From positions 1 to 64,000 of the forward strand of contig CAVZIW010000011.1 in NCBI GenBank assembly GCA_963775465.1: a DNA stretch of 64,000 bases, written 5' to 3'. The stretch comes from Candidatus Bathyarchaeota archaeon. Lineage in GTDB: Archaea; Thermoproteota; Bathyarchaeia; Bathyarchaeales; Bathycorpusculaceae. The notes under the pieces are model-generated. The model was not told the DNA's origin. It saw only the letters and a program-made list of their open reading frames with translations, and searched no databases. Shown here one piece after another: positions 51,336 through 60,152 of this stretch (the first letter of the stretch is position 1; every line of letters starts with the position of its first letter). The translations under genes were made by a program, and so were the position numbers.

Positions 51336-52343
51336 CTAATGAAGTCTACCTAGCTTCCAAGGAGTCGGATGCAATATTACGTCAGTTGCAAACGGAGTCC
51401 ACCAATGTTCATTTTCAATATACCACTTAACAGTAGATCTTAATGACTCCTCAAAGCTGAACTTAGGTTTCCAACCAAGCTCGTTTCGAATTTTTGATGA
51501 ATCTAAACTGTAACGAACATCATGCCCTGGGCGATCTTCGACAAATGTAATTAAGCTCTCAGGTTTTTTGAGTTCGTTCATTATTCTTTTAGCAATTTGC
51601 AGATTGCTTAGTTCGTTGCCAGCTGAGATATTGTATATTTCACCTGGTTTTCCTTTTTCTAGCACGACACTAATCCCTTCGCAGTGATCCTGGACGTAAA
51701 TCCAATCTCTTATGTTGTTACCCTTACCGTAAATGGGAATCGGCAAGTTCCTCAGTGCACGAATAACGGTTTTGGGAATTAGTTTTTCAGGCATCTGATA
51801 TTTTCCAAAATTATTAGTACATCTCGTAATTGAAATATTTAATCCGAAGGTTTTATGATAAGATAACACAAACATATCCGCGGCCGCCTTTGAAGCAGAG
51901 TATGGATTAGATGGTTTAGGCACAGTCGTTTCGGTGAACGAACCCTCTGTGGTTTCACCGTAAACTTCATCGGTGGAAACTTGCAAAAGCCGAGCTTTTT
52001 GGTTATGTCGTCTTATAGCTTCCAAAATTGTAAAAGTGCCCAATGTGTTGTTCTGTAAAAACAAATTGGGGTCAGATATGCTCCGGTCAACATGCGTTTC
52101 AGCTGCAAAGTTAACTATAACATCGACCTGGTGAATTAGACGATTCATGAGGTGTGGGTTGCATATGTCGCCTTTAATGAAGGTGTATCGTTTGTCATTT
52201 TCGATGTCACGCAGATTTGCCGGGTTAGCGCCTATTCCAATTTTGTCCACGTTTATCAATTCGTAGTCTGAGTGGGTTGCAAGCATAAGCTTGACAAAGT
52301 TGCTTCCGATAAATCCTAATCCGCCGGTCACTAACACTTTCAT
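51336..52343 (-). CDS. rfbB: dTDP-glucose 4,6-dehydratase
   Basis: GGLGFIG, AAETHVDRS, STDEVYG, YSASK, DRPGHD. Confidence 0.96.
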   Translation of the reverse strand: MKVLVTGGLGFIGSNFVKLMLATHSDYELINVDKIGIGANPANLRDIENDKRYTFIKGDICNPHLMNRLIHQVDVIVNFAAETHVDRSISDPNLFLQNNTLGTFTILEAIRRHNQKARLLQVSTDEVYGETTEGSFTETTVPKPSNPYSASKAAADMFVLSYHKTFGLNISITRCTNNFGKYQMPEKLIPKTVIRALRNLPIPIYGKGNNIRDWIYVQDHCEGISVVLEKGKPGEIYNISAGNELSNLQIAKRIMNELKKPESLITFVEDRPGHDVRYSLDSSKIRNELGWKPKFSFEESLRSTVKWYIENEHWWTPFATDVILHPTPWKLGRLH

Positions 52344-52345
52344 AG

Positions 52346-52600
52346 TTAATCACTTGTAAAGAAATAATTCCAGTCCCAACTTTTTTCGACCCGTGGTTCA
52401 TCTTTGTTGCTGACAAATTTATGGATAAACGTTGGATCGTTCCAAAGGCATTTTTCTCTGTCTGGAGCTTTAGCTTTATGCGGATTTGGGGTAAAATAAA
52501 GCAATATAGAAAGTTGATCGCCTAGCAGATTCATGTATTGAGCTCCTTTCTACACTATGCAATACTCTGGGTATTATTACTTGCTGTTGCCTTATGCTTT
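52346..52600 (-). pseudogene. Probable degraded remnant of an archaeal dTDP-4-dehydrorhamnose 3,5-epimerase (RfbC-like)
   Basis: Residual ORF ...LLYF..PD....WNDPT....DEPRVEKSWDW resembles, from memory, the C-terminus of archaeal RfbC-like cupins; directly upstream of rfbB; N-terminal part missing. Confidence 0.45.
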
Positions 52601-52604
52601 TGAG

Positions 52605-54197
52605 TTAAACGTGGAATATCTTCATCAACATCTCAATCAAGGTAACGAAAACATTCAGTAGCTTAGACAAGGGACCGAAACCTTTTGCTATTTGCCTAAT
52701 GTTAGTTAAGTCAGTTCTGTTGATGGTTCTGGTAATTATAGATATCAATATGAAGGCAATCGCAAAAATTAGTACACCGAATATTAGTTGTGTAAATAAT
52801 TGAATTAGACTACTTGATGGCAATAAAGATAATGAAAAATAGGTTAATAGCCCAGACAGACCTGAAGAAAACAGAATTTTTATTGAAGAACGCCAATCGA
52901 CTGAAACCCCAAAATTTTTCTTAATGAACCGCAGAGCAAAATACAAACTTGGAATACCAACAGTTGACGTAGCGACAATCAACCCAATAATACCAAATTG
53001 AAAGACCATCACAAAACTGAGAGGAAAACCAACTGCAACGGTAAGTATTGTTAAAATTAGATTGTATTTGGTGTATCCTTGTCCATTTATTAGGTTACCT
53101 GCACTGAGGCTTCCAAGCGCAGTAAATAGATAAGCCACAGATTGTAAAACAAGGAAAAGTGGTGCTTCAGGATACTTTGAACCAAAGAGAATAAAAATGC
53201 CAGGATGAGCAAGAGCCATAACTAGAAATGTAACTGGAACTACAATAAGAGCAGCATACTTTACAGAAAATTGAAAAACACTTTTAAGCAATTCACCTTC
53301 TTTCGCAGAGTCTAACTTAGAAAAAGCAGGAAAAAGCATTGTTGTTACAGGCGTAGCAAAGAAAGTTATTAAAACGACAAAGTTTGTTGAAACGGAATAA
53401 CTACCGATAAGAGAATTGTCAGTAACAAAATATGCCATTACGGCACTATAAAAATAGGCTAGAAAACCAGCTAGGATAGTGCCGATTGAAAGCGGTAGAC
53501 CATATTTAATCATGGTTTTTATGGTTTGCATTAATTCCAACTTAACGTGATTTGGATTAGGAAATTCACGATACATTGTAAAAACCAATAATACTCCAAC
53601 TATTCCAGCCGTTAAGACTGCTAAAATAAAACCGTCAATTGCTCCAAGAGTTCCTAGTCCTAACAAAACTAACCCAATTATTAAACCAGTCTTGAAGACT
53701 GATTGAATAATCAGCATAACACTGTTAAGATGCATTTTTTCCATGCCTGTGAATGCAGCGGTTGCTGTGCTTACTAATGCACCAGTTAGGATGAAAAATG
53801 AAGCTATTTGAATCAATTGTGTAATGGCAGGACGATTGTAAAATGTAGTGGCGAGAAATCCTGCAAGAACAAGAGATAGCAAAGAAAGCGCTAAACCCAA
53901 TATGATTTCAAACGCAAACCCAGCGACTAAAACGCTGCGGATTTTTGCTATGTTGTTTTCGCTTCGGTATTGCGCGGAATACTTAACAATGGCAGTGTTT
54001 ATTCCCCAATCCCTAAAATTTGCAATGAGGTTGGGAGCTGCAAGAGCAATCGCATATAAACCTAAATCACCAGGTGACAAGAGTCCGGCAAGAATTATTG
54101 TACCTACTGACGATACAACTGTGGATGCAACGAGACCCCATAATAGGTGAAAGCCGCCTTTCGCAGAAACTTTCGCCATCTCGGTTGCCTTAGACAA
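52605..54197 (-). CDS. Oligosaccharide flippase (Wzx/MOP family)
   Basis: About 14 TM helices; DWGINTAIVKY and LFPAFSKL motifs. Confidence 0.9.
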   Translation of the reverse strand: MSKATEMAKVSAKGGFHLLWGLVASTVVSSVGTIILAGLLSPGDLGLYAIALAAPNLIANFRDWGINTAIVKYSAQYRSENNIAKIRSVLVAGFAFEIILGLALSLLSLVLAGFLATTFYNRPAITQLIQIASFFILTGALVSTATAAFTGMEKMHLNSVMLIIQSVFKTGLIIGLVLLGLGTLGAIDGFILAVLTAGIVGVLLVFTMYREFPNPNHVKLELMQTIKTMIKYGLPLSIGTILAGFLAYFYSAVMAYFVTDNSLIGSYSVSTNFVVLITFFATPVTTMLFPAFSKLDSAKEGELLKSVFQFSVKYAALIVVPVTFLVMALAHPGIFILFGSKYPEAPLFLVLQSVAYLFTALGSLSAGNLINGQGYTKYNLILTILTVAVGFPLSFVMVFQFGIIGLIVATSTVGIPSLYFALRFIKKNFGVSVDWRSSIKILFSSGLSGLLTYFSLSLLPSSSLIQLFTQLIFGVLIFAIAFILISIITRTINRTDLTNIRQIAKGFGPLSKLLNVFVTLIEMLMKIFHV

Positions 54198-55789: not shown

Positions 55790-56899
55790 TTAGGTTTTCC
55801 AATCTGGCCCAGCCTTTTTGCCCAAAGCCAACACTTGAATGTGACCGATAATGATTATTATCATCCATACGCTGGAGTAAAAGAAGTAATATACAAAGAG
55901 TTCATGCAATTTTACTTCTCGAAAACCAAGCTTTCTAGCGAACCCATAGAAGATAGCGGCAGTTATAGCAAACCCAGATAGGGATATTAGAAGTATTTTG
56001 AGGGCGTCTGCAGTGGCTAAAGAGAGGAGAAAAACTGGGAGAGCAAAGTTGAATTTCACTGACAAAAATAGTGATACAACTAACAAGGAATTGTACATCC
56101 AAAGACTAGGAATTACTGCACTTAAAACGAAAACGGCTACAGATGGATACAAGAAAAAGAGGCTGGGTAAGAAAACTTGAGGTTTTCTAATGAACCTTTT
56201 AGCAAGCGGTTTGTACCAGTCTTTTAGCCATAGTGCTTGTCCAATTGCCCACCTTCTTCGCTGAGTAAACCATTTCTTCCAACCTGAATGTACAACGTTT
56301 TGGACCTCAACATCATGTGTATAAGCAAAAGAACTATCATCAAGAAAAGCTCTTGTAGCAATATCAATATCTTCAGCAACAACTTTTCGAAAACCATGAA
56401 CCTGCTCGAATTTTTCACGTTTTATTGCAAAAGCGGCACCGTTTACTGCTGGACACTTGTGCATAAACCTCGAAGCTAACCAGGCGCTTATGTTAAAAGT
56501 CAAATACTCATAATATGCCATTTTGGAGAGAAACGAATTGCCCTTGGTGACTTTCTTTTTTATGTCCAGAACATCAGTTTGCTGCATTTTCATTACAATT
56601 TTCCGTAAATAGTCAGAATCGTTTGGTATTCCAACATCAGAATCCAAGAAAAGAAGCACTTTTCCCGAGGACAACTTTACAGTATTATTCAACGCGTTAG
56701 CCTTTCCAACACGTTCTTTGTTTTGAAGGAACTTCACATCTTTTTGTTCAAGTTGCCTGATTTCTTGACTAAACTCTTCGGTGGGTTGGTCTACGGTTAC
56801 AAAAATCTCTTTAGAAACATTCTGTGAAACCAGTCTTTTTAGCATCCCCGATAGTTGATCGGATTGCTTGTAAACGGGGATGAAAATGCTGATGTCCAC
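55790..56899 (-). CDS. GT2-family membrane glycosyltransferase
   Basis: IPVY, GKANALN, DSD, AED, QRRRW (D,D,D,QxxRW pattern), C-terminal TMs. Confidence 0.9.
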   Translation of the reverse strand: MDISIFIPVYKQSDQLSGMLKRLVSQNVSKEIFVTVDQPTEEFSQEIRQLEQKDVKFLQNKERVGKANALNNTVKLSSGKVLLFLDSDVGIPNDSDYLRKIVMKMQQTDVLDIKKKVTKGNSFLSKMAYYEYLTFNISAWLASRFMHKCPAVNGAAFAIKREKFEQVHGFRKVVAEDIDIATRAFLDDSSFAYTHDVEVQNVVHSGWKKWFTQRRRWAIGQALWLKDWYKPLAKRFIRKPQVFLPSLFFLYPSVAVFVLSAVIPSLWMYNSLLVVSLFLSVKFNFALPVFLLSLATADALKILLISLSGFAITAAIFYGFARKLGFREVKLHELFVYYFFYSSVWMIIIIIGHIQVLALGKKAGPDWKT

Positions 56900-57002: not shown

Positions 57003-57560
57003 TCAGAGAGGAATGCATCTTTGCATCTGCCACAATTTTTCAGCAGCAACCTGCGAAATTGGCCCGACCCGAACAAGAATTTCAGCTTCATGACCATCAT
57101 TTTCGAAATCTTCTTCACTAAACAAAAGTTTTTCCTCACATTTTGAGCCTAAGAGCTTTGCTAATTTCAAGAAGTTTTTTCTAGACGTTTTGTTTGAAGG
57201 ATTTACCGTACCCTCGAAATATTTCGCATTTACCCTTCTTATTTGGTAAAGAAGCAAGCGTAATTGTAGACCATGTCCTCGGTAATCTTGATGAACCACT
57301 ATTTCCCAACTGAAAAAAGTGTTAGGTCTATTCGGCGGTACATAACCTGACGAAAACGCAATTATTTTGCCTTCATGTTCAGCAACGACGCAAGTATTTG
57401 AGAAATCTTTTGCTAAAAGAAAATAGGTGTAGCGGGAATTTAACCCAACGTATGGTCTGTTTGTTATTAGCAACTTGTAGACTTCTTTTACGTCTTCAAT
57501 TTTTATGTTCCTGATATTGAAAATCAAGATTTCTTTGTTTTTAGACATAAAACACTTCAT
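57003..57560 (-). CDS. ectA: EctA-like (diaminobutyrate acetyltransferase family) GNAT
   Basis: [53 protein letters not shown] closely follow the EctA consensus. Confidence 0.82.
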
Positions 57561-58897
57561 TGCTGCTTAACTTTTTTGGCTCTTCGCTCTAAACGCATGT
57601 TTCCACGGGGTACAAGCGAAATTTCGTCATTTGAATCAGTTAATAACCTTTCAATGCCTATAGTTTTTGTTTCGTCACCCTCATCCAATTTCAACTGTAA
57701 GTGACAGTCATCACATTTTCTGTCGCAGAAAATTGGTTCATAGCTGTCAGGTTCTTTGTAGGTGGTTATGATGCCCTCGTAATTTCTTAAGACAACTTTG
57801 TTTGTGGACCAAGAAACGATGTAGTTTGGCATTACTGGGATTTTTCCGCCTCCACCTGGAGCATCGATTACGTATGTTGGTACTGCAAACCCGCTTGTGT
57901 GCCCTACTAAGCTTTCGATTATTTCTATACCCTTTCCGATGGGTGTTCTGAAATGAGAGAGTCCTTCAGAGAGGTCACATTGGAACAGATAATAGGGTCG
58001 AACCCTGTTTTGTACGAGTTTTTGATTGAGTTTTTTCATGATTCTGGGACAGTCGTTAACACCTGCCAACAGCACAGACTGGTTTCCGAGCGGAATTCCT
58101 GCATCTGCCAACTTACGTAGTGCTTCCTGAGCCGAATGTGTAAGTTCCCTGGGGTGGTTAAAATGAGTATTCAACCAAATTGGATGATGCTTTTTGAGCA
58201 TGTTCACTAGTTCGTCGGTTATTCGATATGGAAGAACCACTGGGATTCTTGAGCCAATCCGTATTATTTCTACATGTGGAATCTTTCTTAATTCTGTCAA
58301 AATCCAGTCCAAGTATTCATCAGGCAACATGAGAGGGTCTCCACCTGAAAGCAGAACATCACGGATTTGATGGTTGTTTTTGATGTAGTTTATTCCTTCG
58401 AGTATTTGTTTTTTTGAGGGGATAAGTTCAGGGTCACCGACTTTTCTTTTCCGGGTACAGTGCCTACAATACATTGAACAACGATTACTGACCAAAAAAA
58501 GCACTCTATCAGGATACCGATGGGTTATCCCTTTAGTAGGACTATCCTTGTCTTCGTGCAAGGGATCAGACATATCGTATCGTGAAATAGTAAGTTCAGC
58601 AGGGTCAGGAAATGATTGTTTGAATATTGGGTCATTGCAATAATTCTCTTTCTCTATTAAAGAAGCATAGTAAGGAGTTATGTTGAGGGGGAATTTGCTA
58701 ATTGTTTTTTCAAGTTCTCTATGTTCTTCTTCTGTAAAAGTAATACCTGTGAACTTTTCAAAAGCAGAAATGGTTTTAATCGAATTGGCTAGCTGCCACT
58801 TGTAATCTTTCCATTCGCTAAGCGTTATGGGCTTATCAACGTTTTCTGCCATGTATGAATGAAAACTCTTCAGCTTTTCAGTTTTTTTAGAAATCAT
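57557..58897 (-). CDS. kamA: Lysine 2,3-aminomutase (radical SAM, AblA/KamA)
   Basis: [38 protein letters not shown] (PLP Lys), C-terminal CDRKCDDC. Confidence 0.96.
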
Positions 58898-59141
58898 ATA
58901 ACTAATTTCCTCTACTTAGAATAATTTTTGAATAAGCAAATCACCACTTTTATATCTTTTTTGACAAATATCCGTTTTTCAACAAAAAAAACACAAATTG
59001 CTGTGAAAAGGATAAAGCTTCAAAAACAAAACAGCGCCCAACATATGTGGACCTTTATTCAAATTGTTCTCAGTTCATCTCTTTTTTATAATGATTCCTA
59101 TAGGTAAATTATTATTCGTGGCAACCGAATCTATCAACACT

Positions 59142-60152
59142 ATGACGAAAGTCAAGGCTATCAGTTTACTTTCTGGTGGATTAGACAGCATCCTTGCCAC
59201 AGAACTCATCCGGCGACAAGGAATTGAAGTGATAACTCTTAACGTTAAAACACCTTTCGGGATTCCTAAAAAAGACGGTACAAGTGATGCTGCCGAAGCT
59301 GCCAAACAACTAAAAGTTCCCCTAAAAGTCCTCACTGCCGAAGGTGATTACATTCGGATGCTGCGTAAGCCAAATCATGGGTATGGCAAAAACCTAAATC
59401 CATGTGTAGACTGCAAAATTTTCATCTTAAAAAAAGCAAAAAAATACGCTAAAGAAATCGGTGCTGACTTCCTCTTTACCGGAGAAGTTTTGGGTGAGCG
59501 TCCTATGTCCCAACATTTTCTCGCCCTCAAGATTATTGCAAAAGAATCTGGGTTAAAAGGAAAACTCTTACGTCCACTGTCAGCAAAACTATTGCCCGAA
59601 ACAGAAGCAGAAAAAAAAGGGATAGTTGACAGAAACAAATTGCTAAACATTCAGGGCAGGTCGAGGAAGCCTCAGCTTGAGCTTGCCAAGAAATATGAGA
59701 TTACAACTTTTCCGTCTCCCGCTGGCGGATGTCTATTAACTTGCGAAGAATATACAAAGAAACTTCGAGATCTATTCAACAACAAAAAACGCATTTCGAT
59801 GGCGGATGTTACTTTGCTTCGTTTTGGCAGGCATTTTAGACTCGGAAAAAACAAGATAATCGTCGGAAGAAATGAATCAGAAAACAAGTTTTTGGCCAAT
59901 AATAAAATGCCAACAGACTTTTCTTTTGAACTCTCTGACGTCGTGGGACCCACAACTCTTTTGCAGGGACCAAAAACCAAAAAAGCCATTGAAACCGCCG
60001 CTAAATTAACAGCTTCTTACTCAGACGCCAAATCGGGTAAAGTTACTGTAAAGTATGGTAGAGACTACCTCAACCAAACAGTAATTGTAGATTTGCCCCA
60101 GAAGGCTGAGGTAGAAAGACTACGAGTGGGAAATGAAAAAACCAAAAAATAG
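59142..60152 (+). CDS. PP-loop tRNA thiolase (ThiI/MnmA-like, DUF814-type C-terminus)
   Basis: SGGLDS, NPCVDC, GEVLGERPMSQ, PAGGC, GRHFR. Confidence 0.85.
   Translation: MTKVKAISLLSGGLDSILATELIRRQGIEVITLNVKTPFGIPKKDGTSDAAEAAKQLKVPLKVLTAEGDYIRMLRKPNHGYGKNLNPCVDCKIFILKKAKKYAKEIGADFLFTGEVLGERPMSQHFLALKIIAKESGLKGKLLRPLSAKLLPETEAEKKGIVDRNKLLNIQGRSRKPQLELAKKYEITTFPSPAGGCLLTCEEYTKKLRDLFNNKKRISMADVTLLRFGRHFRLGKNKIIVGRNESENKFLANNKMPTDFSFELSDVVGPTTLLQGPKTKKAIETAAKLTASYSDAKSGKVTVKYGRDYLNQTVIVDLPQKAEVERLRVGNEKTKK

Follow-up and report, generated by a model that had tools for sequence, protein, structure and literature searches.

The window analysed here is a 64,000-nt stretch of a metagenome-assembled Bathyarchaeia genome (2.42 Mb in 15 contigs, 92% complete). 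Its minus strand carries two overlapping genes, ablA (also called kamA), which encodes a lysine 2,3-aminomutase, and a gene for a GCN5-related N-acetyltransferase (GNAT) of the EctA family. This two-gene cassette probably makes N-epsilon-acetyl-beta-lysine, with the EctA-family enzyme standing in place of the acetyltransferase AblB. The assignment of the window to Bathyarchaeia is based on the names of close homologues and on four genome records. These organisms are uncultured and are generally held to be abundant in sediments and soils.

In the pathway that we propose, L-lysine from a LysW-type pathway would be converted by AblA to beta-lysine (3,6-diaminohexanoate). The coupled GNAT would then use acetyl-CoA to acetylate the distal (epsilon) amine, just as EctA acetylates that of a shorter diamino acid, L-2,4-diaminobutyrate (DAB). 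The resulting N-epsilon-acetyl-beta-lysine would accumulate as a compatible solute. The substrate, the regiochemistry and the osmolyte role are all predicted here from sequence; the broader claim, that beta-lysine is a substrate of the GNAT whatever the product, appears quite likely. An earlier note on this DNA had described the locus as a candidate hybrid osmolyte pathway. Its idea of a non-orthologous second enzyme is supported in silico, while the word hybrid slightly overstates the case, the predicted product being a known solute.

The aminomutase and the acetyltransferase

The AblA protein scores 780 bits against the lysine 2,3-aminomutase model TIGR03820 (cut-off 525.4), with positions 3-417 of the 417 model positions matched. 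The next best models, those of glutamate and arginine 2,3-aminomutases, are matched far below their own cut-offs. Pfam identifies Radical_SAM and LAM_C (PF12544, E 7e-46) domains. When aligned with the solved enzyme from Clostridium subterminale (2A5H; 511 bits), Cys140/144/147 (CxxxCxxC), Arg149, Asp308, Asp345 and Lys352 fall on Cys125/129/132, Arg134, Asp293, Asp330 and Lys337, respectively. We take these to be the CxxxCxxC cluster, the lysine that holds pyridoxal phosphate (PLP), and the Asp pair and Arg that grip the substrate lysine. By these sequence criteria AblA is an equivalog-level lysine 2,3-aminomutase that retains its catalytic and lysine-binding residues.

The same genome encodes a second KamA-family radical SAM protein of 408 aa, outside the window (G000:C1:217755-218681; L159:1732-2958, +). 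It scores 265 bits against the AblA model, lies below every equivalog cut-off and passes only the TIGR00238 subfamily model.

The GNAT is a single-domain protein of about 175 aa, and its sole significant NCBIfam match is to the EctA model TIGR02406, which it passes marginally. No match to the AblB model (TIGR03827, 266 positions) was detected, even at E<=1. The protein matches the solved EctA structures 3D3S (E 2.4e-25) and 6SJY/6SK1 (E ~7e-20). Its AlphaFold model, built from a 120-sequence alignment, has a mean pLDDT of 94.3, and a Foldseek search of the PDB with this model returned EctA chains at all of ranks 1-10 (E 7e-17 to 3e-14; target-normalised TM 0.81-0.90). Generic GNATs come next, at E >= 5e-9, their E-values being higher by about five orders of magnitude. 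Taken by profile, sequence match, tree position and fold, the GNAT is a member of the EctA family, and clustering with AblB, which the earlier note had named as a possible outcome, was found by none of these approaches. Because it belongs to the EctA and not the AblB family, the GNAT would be a non-orthologous replacement of AblB.

All of the EctA motifs that the earlier note had read in the protein (LNSxYxYxLL, FxxTCVVAE, GYxPP, TVxPSN, HExE and GP, together with WE at residues 85-86) are there, and they fall on conserved EctA columns. The overlap of the two genes was likewise recovered from the open reading frames and the minus-strand sequence. Plus-strand tcat reads ATGA on the minus strand, such that the ATG of the 185-aa GNAT overlaps the TGA stop of ablA. 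A second in-frame ATG (Met5) lies 8 nt past the ablA stop, and alignments of relatives begin at about residue 5; the genes thus either overlap by 4 nt or are 8 nt apart. The two genes are tightly coupled under either choice of start. Across 27 same-strand pairs (from 31 long related loci and the window), the longest GNAT open reading frame begins between -32 and +16 nt relative to the ablA stop.

Linkage of the two genes across related genomes

The 101 genomes of the genus comprise 43 with the adjacent pair, 2 with the GNAT alone, none with AblA alone and 56 with neither. Thus, the genome-wide survey of synteny proposed in the earlier note found kamA (ablA) adjacent to the GNAT gene, on the same contig, in 43 of the 45 GNAT-carrying genomes. 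The two GNAT-only genomes are 56% and 66% complete. Two overlapping sets of genome loci gave adjacent ablA at 17/19 and 31/33, and in metagenomes ablA lies directly upstream at 72 of 80 loci. Six of the other eight have less than 150 bp of upstream sequence and two truly lack ablA, so that ablA is found directly upstream at 72 of the 74 loci that have room for it. Outside this genus, the pair was found in two further genera of the same family and in one genus belonging to a second family within the order. A scan of genome contigs gave 4 loci, all from Bathyarchaeia. Related genomes are non-independent samples, and we therefore give counts without statistics. The pairing of ablA with this GNAT is far beyond chance.

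In the 31 loci of at least 6.5 kb, ablA and the GNAT gene are present in every case (31/31). The next most frequent neighbours are a membrane glycosyltransferase (12/31) and a PP-loop ATPase (11/31), and their low frequency means that they probably lie outside the cassette. No third conserved gene, including an MscS-like gene, was found beside the pair in the 31 long loci.

Six of the 56 genomes without the GNAT (G012, G024, G029, G455, G476 and G503) contain only the different KamA-family paralogue, at about 265 bits, which resembles the 408-aa protein described above.

In seven genomes of the genus (G471:C18, G487:C69, G468:C14, G499:C10, G501:C20, G014:C1 and G481:C12), one or both genes are split or interrupted by in-frame stops. 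For example, ablA has 7 stops in G487, the GNAT gene has 2 TAG codons in G499, and both genes are broken in G471. Either the cassettes are decaying here or the assemblies contain errors. In two genomes the complete pair is present twice, on separate contigs (G004, C8 and C24; G450, C3 and C4), and a third has an extra GNAT fragment with 60% identity and 1 TGA about 40 kb from an intact pair (G016:C7:329794-330150). The extra copies and the fragment could reflect duplication or mixed strains in the bins.

Genes for ectoine, AblB and lysine fermentation

Neither ectB, ectC nor ablB was found in the 64-kb window, as the earlier note had stated, and the result extends to the whole 92%-complete assembly. 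EctC had no match in the genome, and EctB had none above the cut-off, the best match reaching 217 bits against a cut-off of 552. That best match is not a DAB-forming enzyme. It is an ArgD/LysJ transaminase encoded between a LysW-type kinase and a LysW-lysine hydrolase, in an operon for [LysW]-aminoadipate/glutamate kinase, ArgD/LysJ transaminase and [LysW]-lysine hydrolase (G000:C2:25636-28745; L003:639-3748). The weak EctB match is explained by this ArgD/LysJ gene of the LysW lysine/arginine operon, and the operon is probably the source of lysine for AblA. The possibility that ectB and ectC lie elsewhere in the genome, which the earlier note had raised against its own reading, accordingly found no support.

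Across the genus, EctC scored above its cut-off in 0/101 genomes. The same search detected EctC in all five genomes of another family of the phylum that have genuine ect clusters (192-199 bits, 1.3-1.7 kb from EctA). AblB had no match in the genome, and scored above its cut-off in 0/101 genomes of the genus and in none of a sample of 401 genomes of the phylum; the controls for this search, B. subtilis and Methanosarcina acetivorans, were positive.

These searches bear on whether the GNAT is instead a true L-2,4-diaminobutyrate acetyltransferase that makes N-gamma-acetyl-DAB as a minor solute. Under such an explanation ablA would be a mere neighbour, and the operon would make two separate solutes. 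The GNAT exceeds the EctA equivalog cut-off, has the EctA fold and retains 16 family-conserved residues, and its relatives carry this name in the source databases. The lack of an EctB above the cut-off in the window's own genome (the nearest protein being ArgD/LysJ) and of EctC above the cut-off in any of the 101 genomes argues against it, as do the strict co-occurrence of the GNAT gene with ablA and the alteration of two near-invariant EctA positions in every member of the clade. We regard this explanation as quite improbable.

Bathyarchaeia are widely regarded as fermenters of amino acids and proteins, and KamA opens lysine fermentation in clostridia. Such general knowledge would fit beta-lysine being an intermediate of lysine fermentation or of a secondary metabolite, with the GNAT as a detoxifying or regulatory accessory. 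The beta-lysine 5,6-aminomutase subunit KamD (PF09043) had no match in the 92%-complete genome, a weak negative as no control genome matched either, and Kce/BKACE (PF05853), the 3-keto-5-aminohexanoate cleavage enzyme, had no match in the same genome with a positive control. Because both are unmatched, beta-lysine seemingly does not feed a clostridial-type lysine fermentation. Moreover, only ablA and the GNAT gene are conserved in the 31 long loci, and we consider a fermentative or secondary-metabolite role very improbable. The pair has no ligase partner, the sole PurD-like gene in the genome adjoining purF on another contig.

A distinct clade of EctA-family proteins with two residue switches

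When 1.84 billion cluster representatives were searched exhaustively with HMMER, 1146 relatives of the GNAT were recovered at E<=0.001. The Bathyarchaeia proteins form one cluster plus fragments, with 59-71% identity to the window protein, and all other relatives have at most 46% identity and 124 bits. We built a maximum-likelihood tree of 90 rows by quick search, using SH-aLRT support alone. It comprised 19 clade members (the window protein among them), the sequence P0125, five ectABC-linked EctAs of the same phylum, and 65 representatives left after keeping lengths of 150-235 aa and then removing every second one. The GNATs of the clade are recovered as monophyletic, with an SH-aLRT of 99, and are set off by a long stem of 0.72 + 0.51 substitutions per site; P0125 is the sister of the clade and the single intermediate (support 97). 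The clade is divided from the ectABC-linked EctAs of the same phylum by a branch with a listed support of 97 (its node is drawn with 89). The backbone of the tree is without resolution. The ectABC-linked EctAs score 159-182 bits against the EctA model and are encoded 1.3-1.7 kb from EctC.

Residues were compared between 31 clade members and 88 representatives, with site counts taken on 150 representatives. Sixteen positions are conserved in both groups (D23, N41, S42, Y44, Y46, F53, P76, F83, W85, V89, R94, T118, N123, H157, E160 and P167), indicating that the catalytic scaffold of the GNAT is kept, and the acetyl-CoA-binding core motifs are also conserved. Another 22 positions are fixed differently in the clade and in the EctA representatives. 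At one of these sites the clade has Gly39 (31/31 and 120/120 members), where the 150 EctA-family representatives have Asp (122) or Glu (16); a one-residue insertion lies beside it. The other switch directly follows Trp85, where Gln in 140/150 representatives is replaced by Glu86 in 31/31 and 120/120 clade members. The change from WQ to WE that the earlier note had pointed out is therefore real and specific to the clade. Among the 150 representatives, the Gly/Glu pair is present in clade fragments and in P0125 alone, which makes P0125 the only sequence outside the clade with this signature. For P0125 itself, scanning metagenomes yielded no locus, no longer relatives were detected, and the atlas led back to the Bathyarchaeota cluster.

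The AlphaFold model places Gly39 on the alpha1-alpha2 loop and Glu86 midway along strand beta4, two elements that in the GNAT fold presumably form the acceptor site. The residues of 6SJY aligned with them are, by our count, Asp33 and Gln80, respectively. An acidic side chain appears to have been relocated from the alpha1-alpha2 loop to beta4, an arrangement that would suit a longer chain with the proximal ammonium group one carbon further from the carboxylate. We propose that the two switches, Asp/Glu to Gly39 and Gln to Glu86, would adapt the acceptor pocket to a substrate that is longer and bears a beta-amino group.

The same linkage to ablA would hold if the GNAT acted on beta-lysine to give a different product, whether by acetylation of the beta-amino group or by use of another acyl-CoA, and the result would be an undescribed solute or metabolite. 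The long stem (0.72 + 0.51) and the 22 EctA-divergent positions leave room for altered regiochemistry. Yet EctA is known to acetylate the distal amine of DAB, the acetyl-CoA-binding core motifs are conserved, and no third enzyme is conserved beside the pair. We therefore find a different product rather unlikely. The Gly39/Glu86 clade may be an unrecognised beta-lysine-specific branch of EctA with a product that is perhaps undescribed (N-beta-acetyl-beta-lysine or another acyl-beta-lysine), a possibility that we hold to be unlikely. If that branch also served other kamA cassettes, the Bathyarchaeia pair would be the minimal form of a widespread family of stress metabolites derived from beta-lysine. 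N-epsilon-acetyl-beta-lysine remains the product that we favour.

Three EctA-family representatives of 363-418 aa (P0160, P0168 and P0245) have the normal Asp/Gln signature and an extra 200-250 aa. A further sequence, P0271 (486 aa), combines FtsX-type permease domains with a stretch 63% identical to the window GNAT. It occurs on one 2.9-kb contig, and we treated it as a possible fusion produced by gene calling or assembly.

Observations that weigh against the proposed pathway

Several observations count against this pair making N-epsilon-acetyl-beta-lysine as an osmolyte. First, the window GNAT is formally above the NCBI cut-off for the EctA equivalog (130.4 bits against 120.6), as are the GNATs of 34 of the 45 carrier genomes of the genus. 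Second, Glu86 on beta4 could serve as a catalytic base and not as a contact to the substrate. Third, DNA of the pair was detected in wetland and soil metagenome runs (two confirmed, at >=99% identity), habitats that are not evidently saline. Transcript data add little here. Two metatranscriptome runs match 8% of the sampled words and yielded 2 and 4 short contigs, respectively, with 90-95% identity in three of these. These contigs lie on ablA and on the 3' end of the GNAT gene, none spans the junction, and DNA carry-over could account for them; the RNA data are too weak to claim transcription or co-transcription of the pair.

Finally, the GNAT occurs without ablA, with its signature intact and in another context, in the two GNAT-only genomes and in two metagenome contigs. 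This GNAT-only sub-lineage (G028/L013:1501-2181, L158:490-1170, G009 and L137) encodes a 226-aa form with a C-terminal extension of about 50 aa. At two of the four loci (L013 and L158), translation and kinase genes lie on one side of the gene and an HD-domain gene on the other; its neighbours in L013 are RIO-kinase-like, aIF1A-like and HD-domain genes. No ablA was found in the GNAT-only genomes, at their 56% and 66% completeness. Because these loci keep the signature in a different context, the GNAT may act without AblA.

This sub-lineage, which keeps the GNAT without a nearby ablA, would fit an enzyme that acetylates alpha-lysine or another amine (ornithine or a polyamine), with AblA serving another purpose or taking the acetylated compound as its substrate. 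There is a precedent in N-acetyl-lysines and N-acetyl-ornithine, which one study describes as known solutes made by single GNATs (PMC9049628). AblA, in contrast, keeps the Asp pair aligned to Asp293/Asp330 of 2A5H, and AblA is found without the GNAT in 0/101 genomes. Since this Asp pair presumably binds the free epsilon-ammonium group of lysine, AblA should need unacetylated lysine. Acetylation of lysine or another amine by the GNAT is thus improbable, and the conversion of lysine to beta-lysine followed by acetylation continues to be our preferred sequence of steps.

Organisation of the locus

The coordinates of the pair and of the surrounding features are given in Table 1. The region upstream of ablA contains a putative promoter, assigned from sequence motifs. 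One flanking gene of the pair encodes a family-2 glycosyltransferase that has a membrane tail and weakly resembles PgaC/IcaA; the other, transcribed divergently, encodes a PP-loop ATPase (weakly ThiI/MnmA-like). Nearby, the window also encodes a dTDP-glucose 4,6-dehydratase (471 bits, above the cut-off) and a multi-pass flippase-like membrane protein. Together with the glycosyltransferase, these two genes suggest that a cell-surface glycan locus adjoins the cassette.

Table 1. Features of the ablA-GNAT locus, with positions in the window
Feature	Position	Strand	Details
ablA/kamA, lysine 2,3-aminomutase, radical SAM and PLP enzyme	57557..58897	-	446 aa; TIGR03820, Pfam, 2A5H alignment
EctA-family GNAT acetyltransferase, proposed beta-lysine N-acetyltransferase standing in for AblB	57003..57560	-	185 aa; TIGR02406, fold, clade
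ATGA start/stop overlap of ablA and GNAT gene, translational coupling	57557..57560	-	read from sequence
Intergenic region upstream of ablA, divergent from PP-loop ATPase gene	58898..59063	-	
AGAGGA ribosome-binding-like site	58908-58913	-	10 nt ahead of ablA ATG; read from sequence
TATA-like GATATAAAAG	58947-58956	-	~50 nt ahead of ablA ATG; read from sequence
Family-2 glycosyltransferase	55790-56899	-	
PP-loop ATPase	59064-60152	+	
dTDP-glucose 4,6-dehydratase and flippase-like membrane protein	51336-54197	-	

Novelty and implications

No description of an ablA and EctA-like pair, or of aminomutases in Bathyarchaeia, was found in a full-text literature search, outside which most subscription journals lie. 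The pathway and its probable product are known; the non-orthologous second enzyme and the pathway in this clade have probably not been reported previously.

On balance, the Bathyarchaeia that carry the pair probably produce acetyl-beta-lysine through a pathway to which databases wrongly give the name of ectoine synthesis. Relatives of the GNAT are named diaminobutyrate acetyltransferase by NCBI and JGI. Because these proteins pass the NCBI cut-off for EctA and bear this name, gene surveys would wrongly score the organisms as having ectoine potential, and surveys keyed to ablB would miss their potential for acetyl-beta-lysine. If the proposed pathway is correct, it would offer a first handle on how Bathyarchaeia cope with osmotic or drying stress. 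The pair would also represent a clean case of non-orthologous enzyme displacement within a two-step pathway, and the two residue switches would be a model for the re-tuning of an EctA-type pocket from a C4 to a C6 diamino acid.

Comparison with known systems

The kamA-ablB operon of methanogens makes N-epsilon-acetyl-beta-lysine. The classical arrangement, also found in Methanoperedens and some bacteria, shares with the Bathyarchaeia pair an equivalog-level AblA, the order of an aminomutase followed by an acetyl-CoA-dependent GNAT, and the predicted product. It differs in its second enzyme, which in Bathyarchaeia is of the EctA family and has no match to TIGR03827; furthermore, no MscS-like gene is attached to the Bathyarchaeia pair. 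In a freshwater Methanoperedens, kamA-ablB is induced stepwise by salt, with acetyl-beta-lysine as the solute (PMC11337218). The same study describes a GTDB survey with KEGG models for kamA and ablB (K21935) (PMC11337218); a survey with the ablB model would be blind to the cassette described here, because its second enzyme is not AblB.

A likeness in gene order to a bacterial system is offered by Bacillus subtilis, which exceeds the cut-offs for both AblA and AblB and has an aminomutase gene next to a GNAT gene. There the GNAT is YodP, an AblB-family protein, unlike the one in Bathyarchaeia. We take the adjacency of kamA and yodP, and their sporulation context, as given.

The EctAs of ectABC(D) clusters (3D3S, 6SJY, 6SK1 and 6SLL) share with the Bathyarchaeia GNAT the sequence family, the fold and most of the family-conserved residues, and presumably also the chemistry, in which a diamino acid is acetylated on its distal amine. 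According to a 2018 ectoine review, close paralogues of EctA operate in unrelated pathways (PMC5924519). In contrast to the EctAs of these clusters, the Bathyarchaeia GNAT is never beside ectB or ectC and belongs to a separate clade, in which the alpha1-alpha2 loop has Gly where the family has Asp/Glu, plus a one-residue insertion, and beta4 has Glu where the family has Gln.

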